Source: a virus (taxonomy: Duplodnaviria; Caudoviricetes). From it: a stretch of DNA of 64,000 bases. This document shows positions 4,258 through 64,000 of the stretch, piece by piece. The stretch's first letter is position 1, and every line of letters begins with the position of its first letter. The stretch is taken from positions 1-64,000 of IMG/VR virus record IMGVR_UViG_2974707348_000001; one strand, given 5' to 3'. A program made the translations under genes and the position numbers. The notes beneath the pieces were generated by a model. That model did not search any database. It was not told the origin of the DNA and was given only the letters and a program-made list of their open reading frames with translations.

Positions 4258-5818
4258 ATGAAAAAATTAACTATCTTAACTGTCGCAACAGCAACGCTTT
4301 TGACACTCGGTGCTACACTTCCAACATATGCAAAAGCAGAGGAAGTCAAAGAAGGAAACACTACTTTTTATGTAGTAGAATCTGGTGACACCCTATCTAA
4401 AATTTCTGAAAAATATGGTGTTCACTTTTCAGTAACACATGCAAATAACGCAAACCAAATCTCTAATGCAGATTTAATCTTTGCAGGTCAAAAACTTATT
4501 GTAGATGGCGAAGGGTTTGATAAAACAAAAGCTACAGTAGTATCAACAACATACAAACAAGACGAAGTTCAAGCTTCTACACAGGGAGATGAAACACCTG
4601 TTGAATCGGCACATGAACAAGCTCCAGTTCAAGAAGCACCTCCTGCTCAAGCTCCAGCTGGTGGAATTGACCTTAATCAAACATCAGGCTCAGTTGACAT
4701 CAACGCTTTAGCTAATTACTTAGCTGGTGCAGGAATGTCTGCTGGATATTCAGCAAGTGAATGGGCTTATATCATTTCTCGTGAATCAAATGGTAGTGTA
4801 ACAGCAACTAATGCATCATCAGGTGCTTATGGGTTAACAGTATAGGAAATGCCCATATAAAATTCCGTGAACTGCTGGAAACTCCTTAAGCTTGTATAGC
4901 TACAAACATAACTCGTGAGGGTACAGTTGAATGCTCTAAAAATATACAAGATTGGACAATCAGCATCCAAGGCATCTCTAATGAGAGAAGCAAGGTTCAA
5001 CGACTACATATACTAGTAACCTAGTTAGTGCGGAACATCAATAAGTAAATTTTTATTGATGATGATATAGTCTAAACACAAGACGAAAGATTGTGAGGTA
5101 CATCTATTGGATGAAATCTGGAAAGAATTACCCTTAAAAGGGTATTACATAAGTAACTTAGGTAGAATTAAATCATGTAGACCTATAAATGGAAAAGGTA
5201 AAATGTTATCATTCGATACAGGTAGGTTTATAAAATTTTCTCATGATAAAGATGGATATGAAATAGCTAATATACGAGGACTATCTACAAAGAAAGTACA
5301 TAGGCTTGTATTGATAACTTTTGAGGGGTATCACCCTGATAAAAATAAGAATTTAGTAAATCATAAAAATGAGATAAAAAACGACAATAGATTGTGTAAT
5401 TTAGAATGGGTTACACCTATGGAAAATTCTAACTATGGAACTTCAAAACAAAGATTATCCAAAGCGTTAACTGGTCGAAAAAAAACAATGACTGAAAAAG
5501 CTTTGAAACAGAAAGAGAATGCAAGAGATAATATAAAGAATGTTAAGAAAAAGGCTTATGCCAAAAAGGGCAACCAGTTTCTTGTCTTTGATAGCGTAAA
5601 ACAACTATCAGAACATTTTGGTGTTAAGTATGTAGAAATTTCTTCTCGTGGAAAAGTTATTAGTAAGGGTAAGTTAAAAGGGTGGACTGTAAACGTAGAT
5701 GACTAACCGTAATGGTTTCCAATTGCTAGGTCATGGCGAATATGCTGGAATGACACTTGGTGAACAAATTGATATGGCTCGTGGATTGCCACGTGGTTCA
5801 TGGGTAGTTTATCCATAA
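4258..5818 (+). CDS. secreted LysM-domain lytic transglycosylase-like protein, spliced join(4258..4834,5715..5818), 226 aa
   Basis: Signal peptide, LysM (YVVESGDTLSKIS), SLT-like IISRESNG..NASSGAYG; splicing restores GAYGCFQLLG and an in-frame stop at 5816-5818. Confidence 0.85.
4835..5714 (+). mobile_element. group I intron in the LysM/transglycosylase gene
   Basis: P1 TATGGGT/GCCCATA with U.G at the splice site; P10 GGAAAT pairs with exon 2 GTTTCC; core elements TGCTGGAAA, AATCAGCA, TCAACGACTAC, GATATAGTCT; terminal G. Confidence 0.9.
5107..5706 (+). CDS. intron-encoded NUMOD4/HNH homing endonuclease
   Basis: EIWK..YYISNLGRIKS; VHRLV..VNHKNEIKNDNRLCNLEW. Confidence 0.9.
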   Translation: MDEIWKELPLKGYYISNLGRIKSCRPINGKGKMLSFDTGRFIKFSHDKDGYEIANIRGLSTKKVHRLVLITFEGYHPDKNKNLVNHKNEIKNDNRLCNLEWVTPMENSNYGTSKQRLSKALTGRKKTMTEKALKQKENARDNIKNVKKKAYAKKGNQFLVFDSVKQLSEHFGVKYVEISSRGKVISKGKLKGWTVNVDD

Positions 5819-6340: not shown

Positions 6341-6706
6341 ATGAATGAGGCACAAAAACACGAAAAAATAATTGAAGAAATTCATGACATGTTTGTGAAG
6401 AAAAACGCAGACTATGGTAATTCATTTGAAAAGAGTTTGGATGAGTGGGGATTAATTGTTTCGGCAATGAGAGTTCAAGAGAAACTTGACCGTGTAAAAA
6501 CTTCACTTAAGCATGAGCTTAAAGTAAAAGACGAGTCAGTAGAGGATTCATTCCTCGATATTGCGAACTACGCTATTATGACAGCAATGTGGTTACGAAA
6601 AGAAAAAGAAAAGAAAGAAGAATCAATGACTTACGAAGAATATGAAGAGAATCTAGTTAAAAAAGAAACGAGAGGAATACAGTTTGGTAAGTCATCTAGG
6701 AAATAG
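6341..6706 (+). CDS. DUF1599-like (nucleotide-modification-associated, MazG-like helical fold) protein
   Basis: KKNADYGNSF..R..EKLDR..DESVEDSFLDIANYAIM signature. Confidence 0.75.
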   Translation: MNEAQKHEKIIEEIHDMFVKKNADYGNSFEKSLDEWGLIVSAMRVQEKLDRVKTSLKHELKVKDESVEDSFLDIANYAIMTAMWLRKEKEKKEESMTYEEYEENLVKKETRGIQFGKSSRK

Positions 6707-42871: not shown

Positions 42872-43217
42872 GGGGATGTAAAGGTTTCGACAGACTATGG
42901 CAATCTCAAATCACATTCCGACAGGGATAGTCGTAAAAACCAAACTAAATATAATTGCAAATACTCAATTAGCTGTAGCCTAAGCTACAAAAAAGTTTAA
43001 GTAATTAAACAGCTAGTAACTGAGACATCGGTAGGTCACTAGTACAAAACAGATGTGTGATGGATTCTGATAAGTCACGATTAACAATCAGAACAGAGTT
43101 AGTAGATAGTTGTTTATTCAAGAAACTAACAATGTGTATCCAATGAATAAACTATGAATGTAAGAAAGTTTTAAGATATGTATAGTTTGGACGCGGATTC
43201 GATTTCCGCCATCTCCA
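42872..43217 (+). ncRNA. ssrA: tmRNA
   Basis: 5' GGGGATGTAAAGGTTTCGAC; 3' GACGCGGATTCGATTTCCGCCATCTCCA with G3.U70; resume context ATAATT-GCA, tag ANTQLAVA* at 42957-42983. Confidence 0.93.
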
Positions 43218-43309
43218 TCATGTTTTTAAAACATATTTAAAAAACATATTACTTTATACTTGACAAACATTAAAAAATGTGTTATAATAGTATATAGTGA
43301 TTATTAAAT

Positions 43310-54247: not shown

Positions 54248-57200
54248 ATGGATAATTTATTTGTTGTTAAGAAAAGAACAGATGAGAAACAAGAAAGGGT
54301 GACGGAAGAGTGGAACTTTGATAAGGTAATTTCTGCCTGTCAAAAGTCAGCTCAACACATAGACAAACCTCTAAAGAAGGAACAAATCGCTAAGATTAAA
54401 TCCTTAGTAGAACTTGCCATTGCTAAGCGTCAAGATGATATTTTAGCTGATACAGATACTCAACATGAAGATAAACTTCATTACATTAATGTTCGTGAAA
54501 TTCACGATATTGTTTTGTCAGCTCTTAAACAAGTTGATACTGATATTTATGATTCATATCATGAATATCGAAATTATAAAATATCGCAAGATAAGCATTA
54601 TCGTGAACTATACAAGGATTTAGACAGTCTTAAGAATGGAATTTATACTGAGAATGCAAACAAAGATAGCTCTATTAATTCAACCAAGCGTTCTCTTCTT
54701 GCTGAAATGACTCAGAAGAAAATTGTGACTGACTTTATTCTTCAAAAGAACTGGGCTAAGGCTCATGAAGAAGGATGGATTTATATTCATGACTTAGGAG
54801 ATTTGTACTGGCGAACATTCAATTGCGACAACGTTGATTTAGCAAATATCATTAAGACTAAAAAGCAAAAAGATGGAGAGTATGCTTTTACTTTAAATGG
54901 TATTAAATATCCTGAACCTAAATCAATTAGTGCAGCATTCAATTTAGTGGCGGATTTGATTTTACAAATGTCTAGCCAACAATTCGGTTTAACAAAATCA
55001 GTCTAGCGACTACCAAACTGCCGAATCAAAACAGTGTTAACCTATCACAATAGGGGTCTTGATTAACATCAAGGCTAACGAGGAAGGGTTGGAATGGCTT
55101 AATCTCGTGATTATATAGAAAGTGGAATACTTTAATGGAAAATAAAAAACAATTTAATGACTTTAAAGATATAATTATCAAACTCTACGAAAAAGAAGGA
55201 AAATCAATTAAATATATTAGTAATCTCTTGGGCTTTGGAAGAAGCAATTTATCCAAACAAATTCAAGAGTGGGGGTTGATAGAAAGCCAAAATAAACATT
55301 TAAAACCATCTACGGTTAAATTTATCAACAAGCACAGAACGATGATAAAAAGTAGATTAGATAATGATGTAACTATTGCGAACATAGCTAGAGAGTTACA
55401 GGTAAAAGCAAACTATTTGTCTGTTACGATTATTCGAAATGATATGGTTTTGGAAAAAGCTAATGATGATAGACTTAAGCGTTCACATATTAGAAAACAA
55501 GCTAGAATAGAAGAACTAAAAGAGAAATCTTGTCTCACATATGATTTTAAAGATTTAGACAATGAGGAGTGGAGAGAGATTTTAGGATATCCAAACTACT
55601 TTGTATCAAATTTTGGTAGATTTAAAAAATATATGAAAAGTTCAGAAAGTTTTATTCTTATGAAAAAGACATATAATAAAGCGGTAGAGTATAATTATAT
55701 TAGTATGATTAATGATAAAAACAAACGAAAAAATCTTAGAGCTTGTAGAGTTGTTGGATTTGCATTTGTCGATGGATTTTCTAAAGAGAAAAATACAATT
55801 AATCATATTAATGGGGACAAAACAAATGACTCATCTTCTAATTTAGAATGGATTTCACAGCATGACAACAATCCTCATAGTCATAGAGTGTTGAATAGAG
55901 CTGTTAATAAAAACAAAAAGAGATATGAAAAAATAGTTTATAAAGAAAAGTATGAATTTAAGACAGTTATAGGTCTTGCAAAGTTCCTAGGGGTTTCTGA
56001 AGCGCAAGCTCATAGATTATTAAAACAGTCTCCTGACATATATTATACCCTTAAAGATAAAAAATAAATAATTTTCCAGAATATAATTGTAACGACTATA
56101 TATAAATATATTTAGAATCATCATAGGATGATTCGAAACACACTGATAGATAAACACAAATATCTATAAGAAATAGTCTAAGGTAGGGTTGGAACACAAA
56201 CCTCCCTATTCTTGGGTTTTAGTGTCCAGAACTTTGACCATCTTCTAGCACCTTATGCGGAATTAACTTACGATAAATCATTCAAAAGATATATGGAAAA
56301 GGGAATTGCATATAATACAGCACGTGAAATGGCAGAAGAAGATACTCTTTATGCAATAAAACAAGGTGTTCAAGGGTTTGAACTTGAAATAAGTACTGTT
56401 TCTAATGCGTTGGGACAAATTCCATTTACATCAATTGGTTTTGGGTTAGATACATCAAAATGGGGTCGTGAAATTACTCGTGCTTTCTTGCTTGAGCGTT
56501 CTGAACCAGATTGTGTACTTGTCTTTCCTAAATTAATCTTTGCTAGTGCGAAAGAAGTCAACTTAAATCCTGATTCACCTAACTATGATTTATTCCAATT
56601 GGCTATTAAATGCAGTTCAACTAAACTATATCCTGACTATGTTTCAATGGATAATGGTATTCTTGCACCTGCATACAGTCGTCATAAAGATGACTTAAAC
56701 CAAATTTTATCAGTACCAATGGGATGCCGCTCGTATAACAATGTTGAGTTTATTAATCCCTTAGAGGATTCAGAAGACTTCCAAAAAGAAGTTTATAAAG
56801 GACGTGGAAATGTTGGTGTAGTAACAATTAATTTCCCTAAAATTGCCATAGAATCAGGTGGTGATTGGAATAAATTCTATGAATTACTACATAAGTATAC
56901 CAATATGACGATGGATATCTTAGATTGGAGATATAATTATGCTGGAGAAGCTAGAGCAGAAAGCAATCCTCTCATGTGGATGGAAGGTGGAGCATGGAGA
57001 CGACTCAATCACGATGAAAAAATCTCTAAAACAATCTTTAATTTCACTGCCTCTGTTGGCATAATTGGGTTCAATGAAGCTTTGAACTACATGTATTTGA
57101 ATAATGGGTATGAAGTTGATAACTTACCAAACTACAAGAGTGGTGAACAACGTCAACAAGACCAAATAAAATTCATGGAAGTCCTTAATTCAATTAAAGA

Positions 57201-58971
57201 ATTTAGAAATATCCATGACGCTGTTCGTATTGACGAAGATGGTGTTCAAACTCGTGTTTGGGATGAAGAAGGAAACTTTGTTCACCCAGACCCTGACAAG
57301 AAATATCTTGAAGTTTATGAAGGTTTAGACACGACACACAAAACAACTATTATTCCTCGTATGTATTCTATCTATGGAACACCTGCTGAATCTCTTGTGT
57401 ATAAAATGATGAAGCAATTACAAAAACAGTATGGATTCATCAATGGTATTACAGCTCAAGAAGATGGAAAAGGACGTAATTATATTACCAACTCATTCCA
57501 CCAACCAGTGTGGGAAAAATCTAATATTTTTGATAAGATTGATTTTGAAGCACCTTTCCATTTGGATAAAATGGCAAGTGGTGGACATATCAGTCAAAAT
57601 GAATTTGCATATGGTACACCAGTAACAGTTCTTGAACAAACTGTGCGTTATGCAATGGAGAAGGGAATGTACTATGGCATCAATATTGCATCTAGTCATT
57701 GTTTTGATTGTGGATGGAATGGTGAAACAGCAGACACCTGTGCTGAGTGTGGCTCAGAGAATGTAGTAACAATTCAGCGTGTTTGTTTTACAGGAGAAAA
57801 TCTTGTGTTTACCGACAAAGGATACGTAAAAATCAAAGATATCAAAGAGGGTGACAAGGTTTGGACAATGAATAAGAGATTTAAGCCTGTCGTTCAAGTT
57901 GGTAAAAAAGAAGTAGAAAAAACAATTAATCTTAAAATTTCAGGAACAGAAGATGTTGTATCAACTTTAGACCATCCTTTCTTTGCTAAAAAAGATAAAA
58001 ATTCAGAAACAGAATTAATCGAAGCACAAAACCTAACAAAAGACTCTTATATTGCAGTACCAATCAATCAAGAATCTATTGTTCCGAAAGTAGAAGGACT
58101 ACCTGTTGAAGATAAAGATTTCTGGTGGTTGGTTGGTCGTTATTTGGGTGATGGTTGGGTCAAACAACATAGTGAAAACTCTATTAGAAGTTATATTTGT
58201 GTTGGAAAAGATGATTCTAATGGTATTGAAAAAATTCAATATGTAATAGATAAATTTAACCTTGGTTATACAGATAGAAAAGAGGCTCGGACAACATATA
58301 CATGGTCTACATTTGATAAAACATTTAATAATTTTATGAAACAAATGGGACATGGAGCTGAAAATAAACAGATTCCTGTAGAATGGCTCAATCTACCTAT
58401 TGATTTGGCGAGAGAACTTCTTTATGGATATCTTTCTGCTGATGGGTGCGTTCATAATAATAAACAAATTTGTAATTCTGTTTCTCGTAAATTGTTATAT
58501 GGAATTGGACAACTTGTATTAAAAGTTGAAAACAAAGGATATACCATTTACAAAAATAGAGATGCTGGAACTATGGAGATAGAAGGTAGAACAGTAAACA
58601 CTAAAGCTAGATATGACCTAAAATTCTCTTTAGGAAAACCAACTATGAGTTTTGTTCAAAATGGTTATGCCTTCTTTAGAGTTAGAGGTTCTGAAATTGT
58701 AGAAAAAAATGATACAGTTTACTCTTTGACGGTTTTAGATGATGCAAGTTATACAATTCAAAATTTACTTGTTAAGAATTGCGGTTATCTTTCTATTACA
58801 TCACGTAACGGACATAGTGTTGTCAATGCTGGTAAGACAGAGGAATTACTTGAACGTGTTAATCACGTTGGAAATGCTAAAAAAGAATATACTAAAAACT
58901 TTGAGAAAAAACATGACATACAAAGAGATGTTGTATCTAAAGAGTTCTCAATGTTTGAATCGGGGGAATAG
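54248..58971 (+). CDS. nrdD: anaerobic ribonucleoside-triphosphate reductase, spliced join(54248..54988,56215..58971), containing an intein
   Basis: ATP-cone, NANKDS, WIYIHDL, NC, QFG|GFS, PMGCRS, GRGNVGV, YITNSFH, CxxC..CxxC, RV-[intein]-CGYL. Confidence 0.93.
54989..56214 (+). mobile_element. group I intron in nrdD
   Basis: P1 ATTCGGT/GCCGAAT with U.G; core CTAACGAGG, AATCTCGTG, GTAACGACTA, AAATAGTCT; splicing restores QQFGGFSV. Confidence 0.9.
55135..56067 (+). CDS. intron-encoded HNH endonuclease with N-terminal HTH repeats
   Basis: EEWREILGYPNYFVSNFGR; INHINGDKTND..SNLEW. Confidence 0.88.
   Translation: MENKKQFNDFKDIIIKLYEKEGKSIKYISNLLGFGRSNLSKQIQEWGLIESQNKHLKPSTVKFINKHRTMIKSRLDNDVTIANIARELQVKANYLSVTIIRNDMVLEKANDDRLKRSHIRKQARIEELKEKSCLTYDFKDLDNEEWREILGYPNYFVSNFGRFKKYMKSSESFILMKKTYNKAVEYNYISMINDKNKRKNLRACRVVGFAFVDGFSKEKNTINHINGDKTNDSSSNLEWISQHDNNPHSHRVLNRAVNKNKKRYEKIVYKEKYEFKTVIGLAKFLGVSEAQAHRLLKQSPDIYYTLKDKK
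57784..58779 (+). mobile_element. LAGLIDADG intein (332 aa) in nrdD
   Basis: Starts CFTGENLV; block B STLDHPF; LVGRYLGDG and LYGYLSADG; block F VYSLTV; ends LVKN followed by C+1. Confidence 0.92.
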
Positions 58972-59567
58972 TGGCTTATATACATCAAATAAATGCTATG
59001 GACTTTGAGAACAGCTTCCAAGAAGGAGGATTTAGACACGATATGCAATCTAAACTTCCTGTTGGGGCTGTTGTTTCAGTCTTTGTGAACTACTGCTCAT
59101 TCCATTGTTTAGGATGTTGGAATAGTGATACGTGGGAGAGAAAAGATGATTTATTTGTAGAAGATGAGAAAGTTGCAGAACAAATCATCGAAGGATTAGA
59201 CCAGTTTGACTTAAATCCGCCTATTGGGTTGAGTTTCTTAGGTGGAGACCCTATCTTACCACAGAATGCAGAATCAACAGCTAATATAATTAGACTTGTA
59301 TTAGAGAAGAAACCTAACATTGTTATTGGTTTATGGACTGGATACAAATTTGAATACTTATTAAAACATGCTGATGAGAACCAAAAATACATCTTAGAAC
59401 ATATTGATGTTATCATTGATGGCAGATTTATTGAAAAGAAAAAGATAGCAAACAAAAGATATGGTTCATATAATCAACGAGTTATTAATGTTCCTAAATC
59501 ACTTAAAAAATGTAAGACAATATTTACAGAATCTTATCAACTAGATATGAAAGATTTCCCAATATAA
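58971..59567 (+). CDS. nrdG: anaerobic RNR activase (radical SAM)
   Basis: CSFHCLGCWN, SFLGGDP, WTGY, IDVIIDGRF, GSYNQRVI. Confidence 0.93.
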   Translation: MAYIHQINAMDFENSFQEGGFRHDMQSKLPVGAVVSVFVNYCSFHCLGCWNSDTWERKDDLFVEDEKVAEQIIEGLDQFDLNPPIGLSFLGGDPILPQNAESTANIIRLVLEKKPNIVIGLWTGYKFEYLLKHADENQKYILEHIDVIIDGRFIEKKKIANKRYGSYNQRVINVPKSLKKCKTIFTESYQLDMKDFPI

Positions 59568-59646: not shown

Positions 59647-60183
59647 ATGCCTAAAAAATTAACAACAGAAGAAATTGATAAAAGAATTAAAGAATTAACT
59701 AATGGGGAATATTTATTATTGGGAGATTATGTTAATTCTTACACTAAAATACAAATCAAACACAGTCTATGTAGAAATACATATGAAGTGAAATGGAGTC
59801 ATTTTCAACAAGGTAGAAGGTGTCCAAAATGTAATGAATCTAAGGGTGAGAAAACAATCTCAGACATTTTAAACTCTCTTAACATTAAATACACTACTCA
59901 AAAAAGATTCCCAGAATGTAAGTATAAACATACTCTACCATTTGACTTTTATGTTTATAATAAAAAATCTAAACTACTTATTGAATTTGATGGTATCCAA
60001 CACTTTAAATCAATTGATGCATGGGGTGGAGATAATGGTCTTAAAGATACTCAATTCAGAGACCAAATCAAAAATGATTTCGCTCTCTCAAAAAATATTC
60101 CTCTGTTAAGAATGCCCTATACAGAACAAGATAATATCAAACAAATCCTAACAAACAAACTCAAAGAGTTAGATTTTATTTAA
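59647..60183 (+). CDS. putative homing endonuclease (Zn-ribbon plus Vsr/PD-(D/E)XK-like domain)
   Basis: RCPKCNESKGE, LPFDFY, LIEFDGIQH, RDQIKN..IPLLR. Confidence 0.75.
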   Translation: MPKKLTTEEIDKRIKELTNGEYLLLGDYVNSYTKIQIKHSLCRNTYEVKWSHFQQGRRCPKCNESKGEKTISDILNSLNIKYTTQKRFPECKYKHTLPFDFYVYNKKSKLLIEFDGIQHFKSIDAWGGDNGLKDTQFRDQIKNDFALSKNIPLLRMPYTEQDNIKQILTNKLKELDFI

Positions 60184-61388: not shown

Positions 61389-64000
61389 TTGACAGTCACA
61401 AAGATTGAAACAAAAAAATCAGCAACACCAGAGTATTTTATGCTCAACAACCAACTAAATATCATTAAAGATGGTAAAATTCAGTTGAACGCAGACAGAG
61501 AAGCTGTCCATAGCTATTTCATTGATTACGTAAACCCACATACAGTCTATTTTGGAGACTTGCGTGAGAAGCTCGACTATTTAGTGAAACACAAGTATAT
61601 CAAAGGCGAAGTACTTGATAAATATACTTTCAAATTTATTAAAAAATTATTTAAAACTCTATATGACAAGAAGTTTAGATTCACAACTTTCATGGGTGCG
61701 TATAAGTTTTATACACAATATGCTATGCACACAACAGATGGAAAATCAATTCTTGAACGATATGAAGACCGTATTGCTTTTAATGCCTTAGTTATGGCTG
61801 ATGGCGATGAGCAATTGGCTCTCAACATTGCAAATGAAATGATTTCACAAACCTATCAACCTGCAACACCAACATTTTCTAATGCTGGTAAATTGCGTGG
61901 GGGTAATGCTGTATCATGTTTTCTCTTGAATATTGAAGATAATATGACTTCTATCGGACGCTCAGTAAACTCAGTTCTTCAATTGTCTAAAATGGGTGGT
62001 GGAGTTGGAATCAACTTAACTGATATCCGTCCATCAGGAGACCCTATCAAGGGTATTGAGAATATGGCTGATGGAGTTGTTCCAATCATGAAACTTTATG
62101 AAGATTCATTTTCATATGCCAATCAACTGGGGACAAGAAGCGGTGCAGGAGTGACTTATCTCAATGTATTCCATAAAGATATTGTTAAATTCCTATCTAC
62201 TAAAAAAGAAAATGCTGACGAAAAAGTTCGTGTTAAAACACTTTCGTTGGGTGTTGTCGTTCCTGATAAATTCTATGAACTCATTGCTAAAGGTGAATCA
62301 ATGTATTTGTTCAGCCCTTATGATATCTATAATGAATACGGAAAACTAATGTCTGAAATCAACATCACAGAAATGTATGATGAGTTAGTTGAAAACAAAA
62401 ATATCAAGAAAGATAAAATCTTTGCTCGTGACCTTGAAGAAGAAATGTCTAAACTTATTCAAGAGTCAGGATATCCATACATCATTAATATTGATACAGC
62501 AAACCAAGAAAATGCTATTGATGGTGTAATTAAAATGAGTAATTTGTGTTGATAGTAGCACCTTTATAGAGAAATCTATATCGAAAATCCTGTGAAACGG
62601 AGAAACTCTAATTTTTAAATTAGACAATTCCGTGCTAAATAAAATATAGTTAAAAATAAAGGAAATAATAATAACTATATTTTTAAATGCCTAACGACTA
62701 GAGAAATCAGATGAGATAAGTAATTATCTCTGAATAAGAAATTATCGTAAGCCTTAAACAAGGTTGAAGCGCAGGAAACCTAAGAATCCAAAACTGGATT
62801 TATGGTTATGAAATAGTCTGTTCTATATAGTGATATATAGATGTTTATATCATAATGTACTGGATATAAACTGCTAAAGAGTAGTGACCTTTAGTGAACA
62901 AAAAGTCAGAAATCCTTCAAGTACAATCTCCATCAGAGTTGAACCCAGACCAAACTTATAAGACTATTGGTACTGACGTATCATGTAATCTTGGTTCAAC
63001 TAATATTGCACATCTTATGGAATCACCAGACTTTGGAAAATCTGTTAGAACAGCATTTCGTGCATTAACCTATGTTGCAGATAGCTCTAATATTGAAGAA
63101 GTTCCTACTGTCAAGAATGCCAACGACAAGTATCACTCAGTAGGGTTGAAAATCGCCTAGCTCTACTATAAAATTTTGCTATATGCTGGAAACTCTTAAA
63201 GATATTGATACTTGAATCTTACCAATTCGCAAAAGTAAAAATTCAATATATAAATAGACAATCAGCAGGGAAGTCGTGGTTGACCCCTCAGAGACTACAC
63301 GCAGAACAACTTAACCAAAAAAAACATTTAACTATAATAGAAAGGAGAATATATGGAAGAATTATGGTCTAATATTGATGGTTTTAACGACAAATATCTT
63401 ATAAGTTCTTTAGGTAGAATGAAAATTCAAGCCAATACATCTAAAAGAATGATTAATGGTGTTGTATTCGATTATCATCAAAAAGAAATGATAAAATCTC
63501 TAAAAATAAACGAAGATAAAAATGAATATGTAAAAGTTCGTCTAATTCAGAAACTTAATAATAAATCAAAAACAGTTTCTGTACATAGATTAGTTGCAAA
63601 AGCATTTATTCCTAATCCTCATAATCTACCAGAAGTAAATCATATAAATGGTAAGAAAAGTGACAATAGAGTTGAGAATCTTGAATGGTGCGATAAAAGC
63701 TATAACATGAAACATGCAATAGAATATCTTGGTTTCAAAGCTGACACCTCCAATTTACAAGACAAAAGACCTGTTTATCAAATAGATAAAGACACTGATG
63801 AGATAATTAAATCTTTTGATAGTATCACTCAAGCCACCAGAGAAACAGGGGTTTTGCACATATCTGGTGTTTGTTTGGGTAACAGACGTACAGCTGGTGG
63901 ATTTAAATGGAAATATAAAGAATAACAACTAATGGTTAAGTTGAAGATATAGTCCAAACCCTAGACAAATATCTCGAAAGAGAGGGTATTTTCATTGTAG
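61389..64000 (+). CDS. nrdE: class Ib RNR alpha subunit, partial; exons 61389..62549, 62906..63146, 63998..>64000
   Basis: [26 protein letters not shown]; splicing restores SNLCSEI; SCNLGS; exon 2 ends HSVG. Confidence 0.93.
62550..62905 (+). mobile_element. ORF-less group I intron 1 in nrdE
   Basis: P1 GTGT/GCAC; core AACGGAG, AATTCCGTG, CTAACGACTAG, AAATAGTCT; ends in G before TCAGAAATC. Confidence 0.9.
63147..63997 (+). mobile_element. group I intron 2 in nrdE
   Basis: P1 GTAGGGT/GCTCTAC; P10 guide CGCCTA predicts exon 3 starts TAGGCG and the window ends with TAG; core TGCTGGAAA, AATCAGCAG, TCAGAGACTAC, AAGATATAGTCC. Confidence 0.88.
63353..63925 (+). CDS. intron-encoded NUMOD4-HNH-NUMOD1 endonuclease
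   Basis: [30 protein letters not shown]; TAGGFKWKY. Confidence 0.92.

Follow-up and report, generated by a model that had tools for sequence, protein, structure and literature searches.

An intron and an intein in the anaerobic ribonucleotide reductase gene nrdD of a Lactococcus 949-group phage

Introduction

How can a gene that is broken twice, each time within a conserved enzyme motif, still encode its enzyme, and do the interruptions serve the enzyme or themselves? This question is raised by nrdD, the gene of the anaerobic ribonucleotide reductase (RNR), in the tailed-phage genome IMGVR_UViG_2974707348_000001. The window, that is, the whole stretch of DNA analysed here, is the first 64 kb (64,000 nucleotides, nt) of this 123,023-base virus record, for which completeness is estimated at 98%. 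Over the shared parts, its nrdD region is 91-95% identical at the nucleotide level to Lactococcus phages of the 949 group (genus Audreyjarvisvirus). An initial annotation, made from the sequence alone, had placed an intron and an intein in this gene and suggested that redox- or oxygen-conditional splicing controls NrdD. Our analysis confirms that the intron-plus-intein arrangement is real, and indicates that two selfish homing elements have very probably entered nrdD independently of each other, each lodging within one of the enzyme's conserved motifs. They would sit in such motifs because this DNA is the most dependable target for homing, and not because splicing regulates NrdD. The evidence observed directly consists of exact boundaries, folds, same-site homologues, polymorphism among relatives and purifying selection.

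Results and discussion

Two insertions in one nrdD gene

The boundaries of the insertions were set by alignment to the uninterrupted nrdD of phage phiL47, which encodes 833 amino acids (aa). This gives the following features, in which a slash marks a point of insertion.

54248..54988, + strand: nrdD exon 1, 247 codons; ATP-cone and start of the NrdD barrel; ends in ..CAA TTC GGT and is colinear with phiL47 nrdD up to the last base.
54989..56214, + strand: probable group I-type intron (site A, QFG/GFS), 1226 nt; not in the nrdD of phiL47, 949 or AM1.
55015..55026, + strand: putative internal guide, AAACU (P10) then GCCGAAU (P1).
55135..56067, + strand: intron open reading frame (ORF) for an HNH homing endonuclease (NUMOD4 and HNH_3; Pfam, PHROG), 310 aa, in the P6/P6a loop.
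56089..56178, + strand: 3' half of the predicted intron catalytic core, with UGUAACGACUA (J6/7 and P7), the P7.1 and P7.2 hairpins, P3' ACACUG, P8, and AAGAAA-UAGUC (J8/7 and P7').
56215..57783, + strand: nrdD exon 2, N-extein part; barrel, PMGCRS thiyl-Cys motif and CxxC..CxxC zinc ribbon; ends in ..CAG CGT GTT (QRV).
57784..58779, + strand: intein, 332 aa; Hint splicing domain and LAGLIDADG endonuclease, with Cys1, TLDH (block B), F:4 Ser, F:13 Ala and terminal Lys-Asn.
58780..58971, + strand: C-extein, 63 codons and stop; CGYL glycyl-radical motif and C-terminal tail.
58971..59567, + strand: nrdG activase (radical SAM), which shares 1 base with the nrdD stop; Pfam Fer4_12 at 2.7e-30, and annotated likewise as nrdG in 949, phiL47 and AM1.

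Read without splicing, exon 1 runs 5 codons into the intron and stops at a TAG at 55004-55006; the resulting ORF (54248-55006, 252 aa) carries the ATP-cone and positions 1-104 of the Pfam NRDD profile. The profile resumes at position 105 in a 919-aa frame (56212-58971) that also contains Hint, LAGLIDADG and Gly_radical domains. The TTG that could pass for a start of this frame, at 56212, falls within the intron and is not a genuine start; exon 2 begins at 56215 (GGT TTT AGT), which places the exon junction at QFG/GFS. The intein is a 996-nt in-frame segment reading ..TIQRV/CFTGEN...NLLVKN/CGYLS. Removal of both insertions leaves 833 codons with no stop, and 777 of the 833 encoded residues (93%) are identical to phiL47 NrdD in a gap-free alignment. 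Given the domain E-values, and given that the gene follows an insert-free allele exactly, the arrangement cannot be due to chance.

Both insertions lie in motifs that are shared with phage T4 NrdD. In the structure alignment, QFGG of the window matches T4 QYGG, and PMGCRS matches T4 PMGCRS, whose Cys is the thiyl-radical Cys. The Gly of RVCGY falls on position 580 in the alignment to T4 NrdD chains of the PDB, where these chains have Ala; G580 is presumably the radical site, and the chains presumably represent the G580A variant. The initial annotation had thus read the structure of the locus correctly: the HNH-bearing intron at QFG/GFS is exact to the base against phiL47 and encloses the NUMOD4 and HNH_3 ORF, and the 332-aa intein between RV and CGYL uses as its +1 residue the Cys beside the radical Gly and ends in a penultimate Lys rather than His. 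Annotation should treat the locus as a single nrdD (join 54248..54988, 56215..58971) that contains an intein, and not as two or three ORFs; public records annotate the nrdD of its relatives as separate NrdD fragments.

A probable group I-type intron between two glycine codons

At the upstream insertion, phiL47 reads ..TTCGGA GGTTTT.. and the window ..TTCGGT/TTAAC...TTCTTG/GGTTTT, so that the last base of exon 1 is U and the last base of the intron is G, as at the ends of group I introns. An alternative cut one base leftwards also keeps FGG, but the intron would then end in T. The intron was folded without constraints and with its ORF omitted, and the rest of its structure was read by hand, because Rfam gave no match. 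The unconstrained fold yields P1, a long-range P3, P4/P5, P8 and P9. In P1, the exon end AUUCGGU pairs with GCCGAAU at 55020-55026, leaving a U.G pair at the splice site, and AAACU, directly 5' of this guide, could form P10 with the first bases of exon 2, GGUUU (read from the sequence). CAGUGU at 55032-55037 pairs with ACACUG, 3' of the P7.1/P7.2 hairpins, to form P3. UGUAACGACUA and AAGAAAUAGUC agree with what RF00028 gives for J6/7-P7 and J8/7-P7' (the consensus as aligned to the phage 949 intron), and the strands follow in the order P3-..-P7-P3'-P8-P7' that a group I core demands, including the P3/P7 pseudoknot. P4, flanked by AA on both sides, and P6, which closes the ORF, look canonical; the ORF-bearing loop is closed by the stems AUUAUAU with AUAUAAU and UGGAA with UUCCA, and the ORF starts 7 nt and stops 6 nt from the stem. 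The insertion is probably a group I-type intron of the phage-type subgroup with P7.1/P7.2, hairpins from which we presume that it belongs to subgroup IA.

The ORF in the P6 loop matches the Pfam families NUMOD4 (3.8e-8) and HNH_3 (2.9e-4), as well as PHROG 59 (HNH endonuclease, 4.4e-24). In the mechanism that we propose, this HNH-bearing group I-type intron would sit between the two Gly codons of QFGG, and its RNA would remove itself by two transesterifications, guided by P1 (AUUCGGU with GCCGAAU, with U.G at the splice site) and P10. Ligation of the exons at 54988/56215 would be expected to give ..CAATTCGGT GGTTTTAGT...

A homologous intron at the same site in Vibrio phages

The closest full-length relatives of the HNH ORF come from 14 Vibrio phage records, F89-F102 (32% identity over 96% of the length). 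In Vibrio phage F100, the homologous ORF is located within nrdD, in an intron at the identical boundary CAA TTC GGT/GGT TT. The F100 intron has the same 12-base guide at the matching place and the same R and S elements, and an independent fold of it returns the same helices. Since the guide is identical in the two, P1 and P10 show no covariation. With helix sequences read by eye, P3 carries three double changes (CUCAGU with ACUGAG in F100, CAGUGU with ACACUG in the window) and P4 one (ACGGGG with UCCCGU, against ACGAGG with UCUCGU in the window), while P8 and P9 are unrelated in sequence. The two phages and their hosts are far apart, and the P1 loop has 12 nt in F100 compared with 31 nt in the window. 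F100 also differs in that its C-terminal NrdD fragment reads ..LTRRLCGYV unbroken, with no intein visible.

Could the insertion be no ribozyme at all, but a free-standing HNH gene, with nrdD divided into two polypeptides that reassemble, as reported for the nrdA of Aeromonas phage Aeh1? RNR genes can be split and still work, Aeh1 nrdA being one case (PMC3653736), and both the missing Rfam match and the TTG at 56212 would suit such a gene. We nevertheless hold this to be extremely unlikely. The insertion is base-exact against an insert-free allele and has the U and G ends, its guide pairs with both exons and its P7 core matches the group I consensus, its helices recur with different sequence in the same-site homologue, and the break falls inside the conserved QFGG motif.

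blastn ('distant') gave zero matches to the probable group I-type intron in 50,697 phage records (a collection that may omit the window's own record), and none of 5 pattern matches to close relatives of the HNH ORF in IMG/VR was confirmed. A search of IMG/VR with an 18-base pattern of the guide sequence gave 7 loci, all without an R or S element, which were set aside as chance matches. Contigs from dairy and wastewater metagenomes do carry the window intron at about 98% identity (25 differences in a 1404-nt contig). An HNH-bearing intron at QFG/GFS appears, by sequence comparison, to be new for Lactococcus phages, with a homologue in Vibrio phages that had gone unremarked.

F100 itself holds more than this intron. 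Its nrdD (L109, 2718-6852) is annotated as four NrdD pieces and two HNH genes, and apparently contains two HNH-bearing group I introns (QFG/G and ..MG/CRS) and a further break at 6471/6472. The second HNH-bearing intron, at the apparent PMG/CRS equivalent, is matched by RF00028 at 38.6 and 19.2 bits.

A LAGLIDADG intein in the glycyl-radical motif

The intein matches the Pfam families Hint_2 (31.5, cut-off 28.4) and LAGLIDADG_3 (31.9, cut-off 22.5). An AlphaFold (AF2) model built from 40 sequences reached a predicted local distance difference test (pLDDT) score of 96.2, and Foldseek placed it closest to TliVMA (7qsu, 3e-21), followed by PI-SceI and PI-PfuI, with a middle domain resembling I-DmoI. 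All nucleophiles of a class 1 intein are present (C1, block B T61-L-D-H64, N332 and C+1). In the 40-sequence alignment, C1, H64 of TLDH, D123 and D220 of the two LAGLIDADG motifs, K195 and N332 are invariant, and T61 is invariant or nearly so.

We propose that this class 1 LAGLIDADG intein, between Val and the Cys preceding the radical Gly, would splice by formation of a thioester at Cys1, transfer to Cys+1, cyclisation of Asn332 and an S-to-N shift that restores RVCGY. The Gly loop would be built, and activated by NrdG, only after the intein has spliced. Splicing of the intron and the intein, its chemistry and the activity of both nucleases are what we infer from such features.

Both activities of the intein, splicing and nuclease, look maintained, because the ratio of nonsynonymous to synonymous substitutions (dN/dS, omega) is low in the whole intein and in the nuclease domain alone. 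For the whole intein, dN/dS was 0.059 against 949 (dS 0.21 in the intein, 0.28 in the N-extein and 0.40 in the C-extein), 0.032 against AM4 (dS 0.16, 0.28 and 0.35, in the same order) and 0.050 against an IMG/VR contig, L030 (dS 0.51, 0.72 and 0.87). In these three relatives, the nuclease domain alone gave 0.054-0.085; the exteins gave 0.084-0.114 (N-extein) and 0.017-0.038 (C-extein). The dS of the intein lies below that of both exteins in all three comparisons, which fits an intein somewhat younger than the host gene lineage.

A site-specific intein lineage with unusual helper residues

The C-terminal helper positions F:4, F:13 and G:6 were assigned by placing the last 21 intein residues by eye on the positions given in PMC4031507. 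The window intein has Ser314 (F:4), Ala321 (F:13) and Lys331 (G:6), where Asp, His and His are usual. That review describes these as 'less conserved' helpers that are not obligatory, and its reference list includes titles on splicing without the penultimate His (PMC4031507). Of 250 related inteins, 238 have His at G:6, whereas 6 have Lys, 4 have Leu, and Gln and Ala occur once each; F:13 is Asn in 106, His in 82, Glu in 36, Ser in 18, Ala in 5, Gln in 2 and Pro in 1; and F:4 is Asn in 175, Asp in 65, Ser in 5 and something else in 5. Cys stands at +1 in 248 of the 250. One of the six inteins with Lys at G:6 represents the 949-group cluster, and the other five precede CQ.. +1 contexts, like methyltransferase-site inteins. 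The trio of Ser, Ala and a non-His residue occurs, within this set, only in the NrdD inteins of the 949 group and of the P0161 type. Separately, a methyltransferase intein in the IMG/VR contig L033 starts with CLTADS and ends in Lys-Asn (..VISKN/CQDLS), so that a penultimate Lys recurs outside NrdD. The Ser/Ala/Lys C-terminal module offers a modest lead for intein chemistry.

Further NrdDs whose intein occupies the site that corresponds to RV/CGY came from a word-index search. P0153 reads ..RRT/CFTKD..SVHN/CGYL and keeps His at both G:6 and F:13; the metagenome NrdDs P0161, P0163, P0164 and P0165 read ..RRT/CFTKD..AVLN/CGYL. The same-site inteins are 49% and 40% identical to that of the window, and the N-exteins only 33% and 32%. 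Because they occupy the same place in distant NrdDs and are more alike than the N-exteins, the inteins of the NrdD glycyl-radical site appear to form a site-specific lineage. Outside NrdD, the closest inteins (30-43% identity) mostly precede the catalytic Cys of cytosine-5 methyltransferases or lie in DnaE-type polymerases. In P0161, P0163, P0164 and P0165, Trp stands at conserved Gly positions (IEGR vs ILWR, GHGA vs GSWA, PMG vs PMW), which looks like genes of code 25 (TGA=Gly) translated with TGA=Trp. P0164 has an additional intein of 361 aa at PM(G)/CRSF, the boundary of the phage 949 group I intron.

Species-representative genomes gave 23 same-site candidate loci, and none of the 13 inspected lay in NrdD; 6 full-length or partial inteins among those 13 sit in other proteins, for example in ..FP/C../CQD methyltransferase motifs. 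From IMG/VR, 80 loci were kept and 30 inspected, of which only 3 are in NrdD, all of the 949 group. HMMER with the intein listed at least 150 representatives, all of which were pattern-scanned, with the flanks of 27 read, and no RV..CGY context in NrdD was found among them.

Presence and absence of the elements in relatives and metagenomes

Among the 949-group phages, each element is polymorphic. The nrdD of phiL47 and WRP3 has neither intron nor intein. In AM1, whose nrdD was inspected, there is a different, ORF-less intron at PMG/CRS and no intein; AM2, 3, 8, 9, 11, 12 and LW81 appear to be like AM1, judging from identical match statistics. Phages 949 and AM4, also inspected, combine the PMG/CRS intron with the same intein as the window, and AM5 appears to do likewise on the same grounds of identical statistics. 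The window intein is 98-99% identical in aa sequence to the 949-group copies, and the same intein is found in one IMG/VR contig. Phages of this group, which differ only in the elements carried, would offer a convenient natural system for measuring homing and its cost in dairy phages.

Metagenome evidence came from the contigs of four runs; in the search of sequencing runs, the best match shared 0.41 of the query words and none reached half. One contig spans exon, intron and exon, and others join across the intron or across the intein. In run X1, the intein-bearing contig has a depth of 98 and the contig joining across the intein a depth of 12.8. Contigs joined across the intron or the intein are insert-free alleles and not products of splicing. 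Joints across the intein, which RNA splicing could not produce, also occur in the metagenomic 'RNA' runs; these therefore behave as DNA, and probably are DNA.

Weighing the interpretation of the two elements

Several observations weigh against reading the two insertions as active homing elements. The Pfam model Intein_splicing scores the intein at 33.2, below its cut-off of 35.8, and HNH_3 scores the intron ORF at 20.9 bits, below a cut-off of 24.8. RF00028 gave no match at E<=1 over 5.2 kb, nor at E<=10 on the 3' core, where Rfam returned chance snoRNA-like matches only; the F100 intron at site A is likewise without an RF00028 match at E<=1, although the neighbouring introns score 26-60 bits with this model. 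This failure may stem from the 930-nt ORF that P6 encloses and from the additional P7.1/P7.2. The structure model of the intron rests on only two distinct sequences, and in both the window and the F100 copies two small hairpins lie between P3 and P4, a departure, as we understand it, from the textbook helix order. The window intein lacks the three usual assisting residues, Asp at F:4, His at F:13 and His at G:6, and for want of these helpers its splicing could be slow or conditional. The metagenome runs show neither splicing step, and the one 248-nt contig obtained from the true RNA run, inside the intein, is evidence of neither transcription nor splicing.

Alternatively, nrdD could be a decaying gene: with one element or both having lost the ability to splice, it would be a dispensable pseudogene, covered by the phage nrdHIEF (class Ib) or by the host NrdD. 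In favour of decay, the intein departs from the canonical residues at three assisting positions, the intron goes unrecognised by Rfam, nrdH, nrdI and nrdE of the phage lie just downstream, and Dwivedi et al. term the nuclease part in phage 949 'remnants' (PMC3653736). Decay is nevertheless very unlikely. Every frame is open, the restored protein is 93% identical to an uninterrupted NrdD, and the LAGLIDADG Asp residues are invariant. Omega is 0.084-0.114 in the N-extein, 0.017-0.038 in the C-extein and 0.03-0.06 in the intein, with dS up to 0.5-0.9, and a dead nrdD is ruled against because values so low cannot hold over such divergence.

Proposed conditional splicing of the intein

NrdD is an oxygen-sensitive enzyme, and the initial annotation had proposed that redox- or oxygen-conditional splicing controls it. 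The intein would then act as a switch that confines the maturation of NrdD to reduced or anaerobic cells: under oxidising conditions, Cys1 and Cys+1 would form a disulfide, or the weakened C-terminal module would stall. As precedents for conditional inteins we take the MoaA-type Cys-3 trap and the PolII-type Cys1-Cys+1 disulfide. Both nucleophile positions of the window intein are indeed Cys; with no His at F:13 and G:6 and no Asp at F:4, Asn cyclisation could be slowed; and the Ser/Ala/non-His pattern is common to the inteins of the 949 group and of the code-25 NrdDs, and is under purifying selection. Disulfides of catalytic Cys make some inteins sensitive to the oxidation state, as stated in PMC4031507, through whose reference list the two precedents are partly named.

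We found no specific support for such a switch, and consider it unlikely, whether by disulfide or by stalling. There is no Cys at -3, nor at any position from -1 to -11; the nearest are the zinc-ribbon Cys at -12 and -15. The remaining Cys of the intein lie in the endonuclease domain, which leaves the generic pair of Cys1 and Cys+1 alone, and Cys+1 is found in 248 of the 250 relatives, mostly in methyltransferases and polymerases. Alleles that lack the intein are widespread among sister phages infecting this host species (phiL47, WRP3, AM1 and others), and intein-free and intein-bearing alleles co-occur within the same metagenome runs. P0153, with its intein at the same site, retains both His, and the penultimate Lys, being found in 6 of 250 related inteins, is not unique. 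A 2014 review knew of no physiologically relevant conditional splicing at that time (PMC4031507). The persistence of the intein is explained without a switch, because its endonuclease domain is intact and under purifying selection, which is enough.

A more elaborate form of the proposal would make the NrdD-site inteins a lineage that has lost both C-terminal His (F:13 Ala; G:6 Lys or Leu) and Asp F:4 yet remains under tight purifying selection, and whose Asn cyclisation depends on an outside factor, the intein being a maturation checkpoint for an oxygen-sensitive radical enzyme. If this were so, splicing would be tied to conditions under which NrdD is able to function, and the candidate factors would be the folded zinc ribbon 12 residues upstream, reduced Cys1/Cys+1, or NrdG. 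The chance that this holds is, in our estimate, similarly small.

nrdD as a hot spot for homing elements

On the reading as two independent homing elements, the window adds to a gene that has been entered repeatedly. The ORF-less group I intron of the 949 group lies exactly between ATG GGT and TGC of PMG/CRS (RF00028 41.6 bits, E 2e-9). The window has no intron there, and its own intron, at QFG/GFS, lies 170 codons upstream of that site. The intron site of T4 nrdD corresponds to about residue 304 of phiL47 NrdD, compared with 247/248 for the window intron. Some lineages have a group I intron at the PMG/CRS boundary, and one other has an intein there. nrdD can be regarded as a hot spot, in which QFGG, PMG/CRS (thiyl Cys by homology to T4) and RV/CGY (glycyl radical) each host homing elements.

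Other mobile elements and RNA genes in the same genome

Mobile elements are also seen elsewhere in this genome. Between nrdG and nrdH, a 178-aa ORF (59647-60183) matches PHROG 559 ('HNH endonuclease'/'homing endonuclease' families, 2e-59) and looks like a free-standing homing nuclease; the phage 949 ORF at the matching place is annotated 'hypothetical group I intron protein'. The class Ib nrdE (61389-64000) is in pieces, with barrel profile positions 1-212 at 61389-62552 and 213-286 at 62894-63160, followed by a NUMOD4/HNH_3/NUMOD1 ORF at 63353-63925. RF00028 matches in the nrdE region at 62541-62840 (48.5 bits), 63171-63307 (44.5) and 63799-63977 (26.1), which suggests that nrdE holds two more group I introns, one of them with an HNH gene.

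A search of the phage's own genome found a group I intron at 4805-5095 (RF00028 60.3 bits, above the Rfam cut-off), right after a LysM-domain ORF (4258-4845) and just before a NUMOD4/HNH_3 ORF (5107-5706). The whole-window Rfam scan at the gathering threshold had left it out, presumably lost in filters. A further RF00028 match lies at 70400-70778 of the genome. The same genome has a second intein outside the window (L117, G000:C1:78504-79526), in a DnaE-like polymerase with PHP, DNA_pol3_alpha and finger domains (Intein_splicing 45.4 bits). Rfam also detects a full-length tmRNA at 42872-43220 (111 bits), among six tRNA genes.

Comparison with known systems

The closest known system is the nrdD of phage 949, shared by AM4 and AM5. 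Dwivedi et al. 2013 reported that it has a 'non-coding intron' and an 'intein similar to Chy RIR1', and that 949 NrdD-b harbours remnants of a nuclease domain (PMC3653736). Like the window gene, it has the same intein at the same site and would need one RNA and one protein splicing event; unlike it, its group I intron is ORF-less and lies at PMG/CRS, whereas that of the window bears an HNH gene and lies at QFG/GFS. The initial annotation had left room for the site being already catalogued, and this proves true in part: the presence of both an intron and an intein has been published for the nrdD of phage 949 (PMC3653736), and the intron is a different one. That paper is the only one we found on the 949 intein. 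None was found that places an intein in the glycyl-radical motif; 'glycyl' has 0 occurrences in the text of PMC3653736, whose Table S1 and Figure 4 may give the site, and InBase and RNRdb lay outside the search. The accessible part of the phiL47 paper mentions group I introns near RNR genes and not the window intein (PMC3888941).

The group IA intron of T4 nrdD (sunY), with I-TevII, is self-splicing and, like the probable intron of the window, brings a homing endonuclease gene into a phage nrdD that lies beside nrdG; it differs in its site, after ..AFQAYE, and in its nuclease, annotated GIY-YIG. The nrdE of Bacillus phage SPbeta shares with the window gene the presence of an intron and an intein in one RNR gene ('lightning strikes twice'), as named in PMC3653736 and in its reference list, but encodes a class Ib enzyme with other elements at other sites. 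TliVMA, PI-SceI and PI-PfuI share with the window intein the Hint and LAGLIDADG fold, Cys1, the Thr..His of block B, the terminal Asn and Cys+1; identity is 11-18%, and at F:4, F:13 and G:6 the usual Asp, His and His are replaced in the window intein by Ser, Ala and Lys. The arrangement of the window nrdD is of a known kind, with an intein already on record for phage 949, and changes nothing known in kind.

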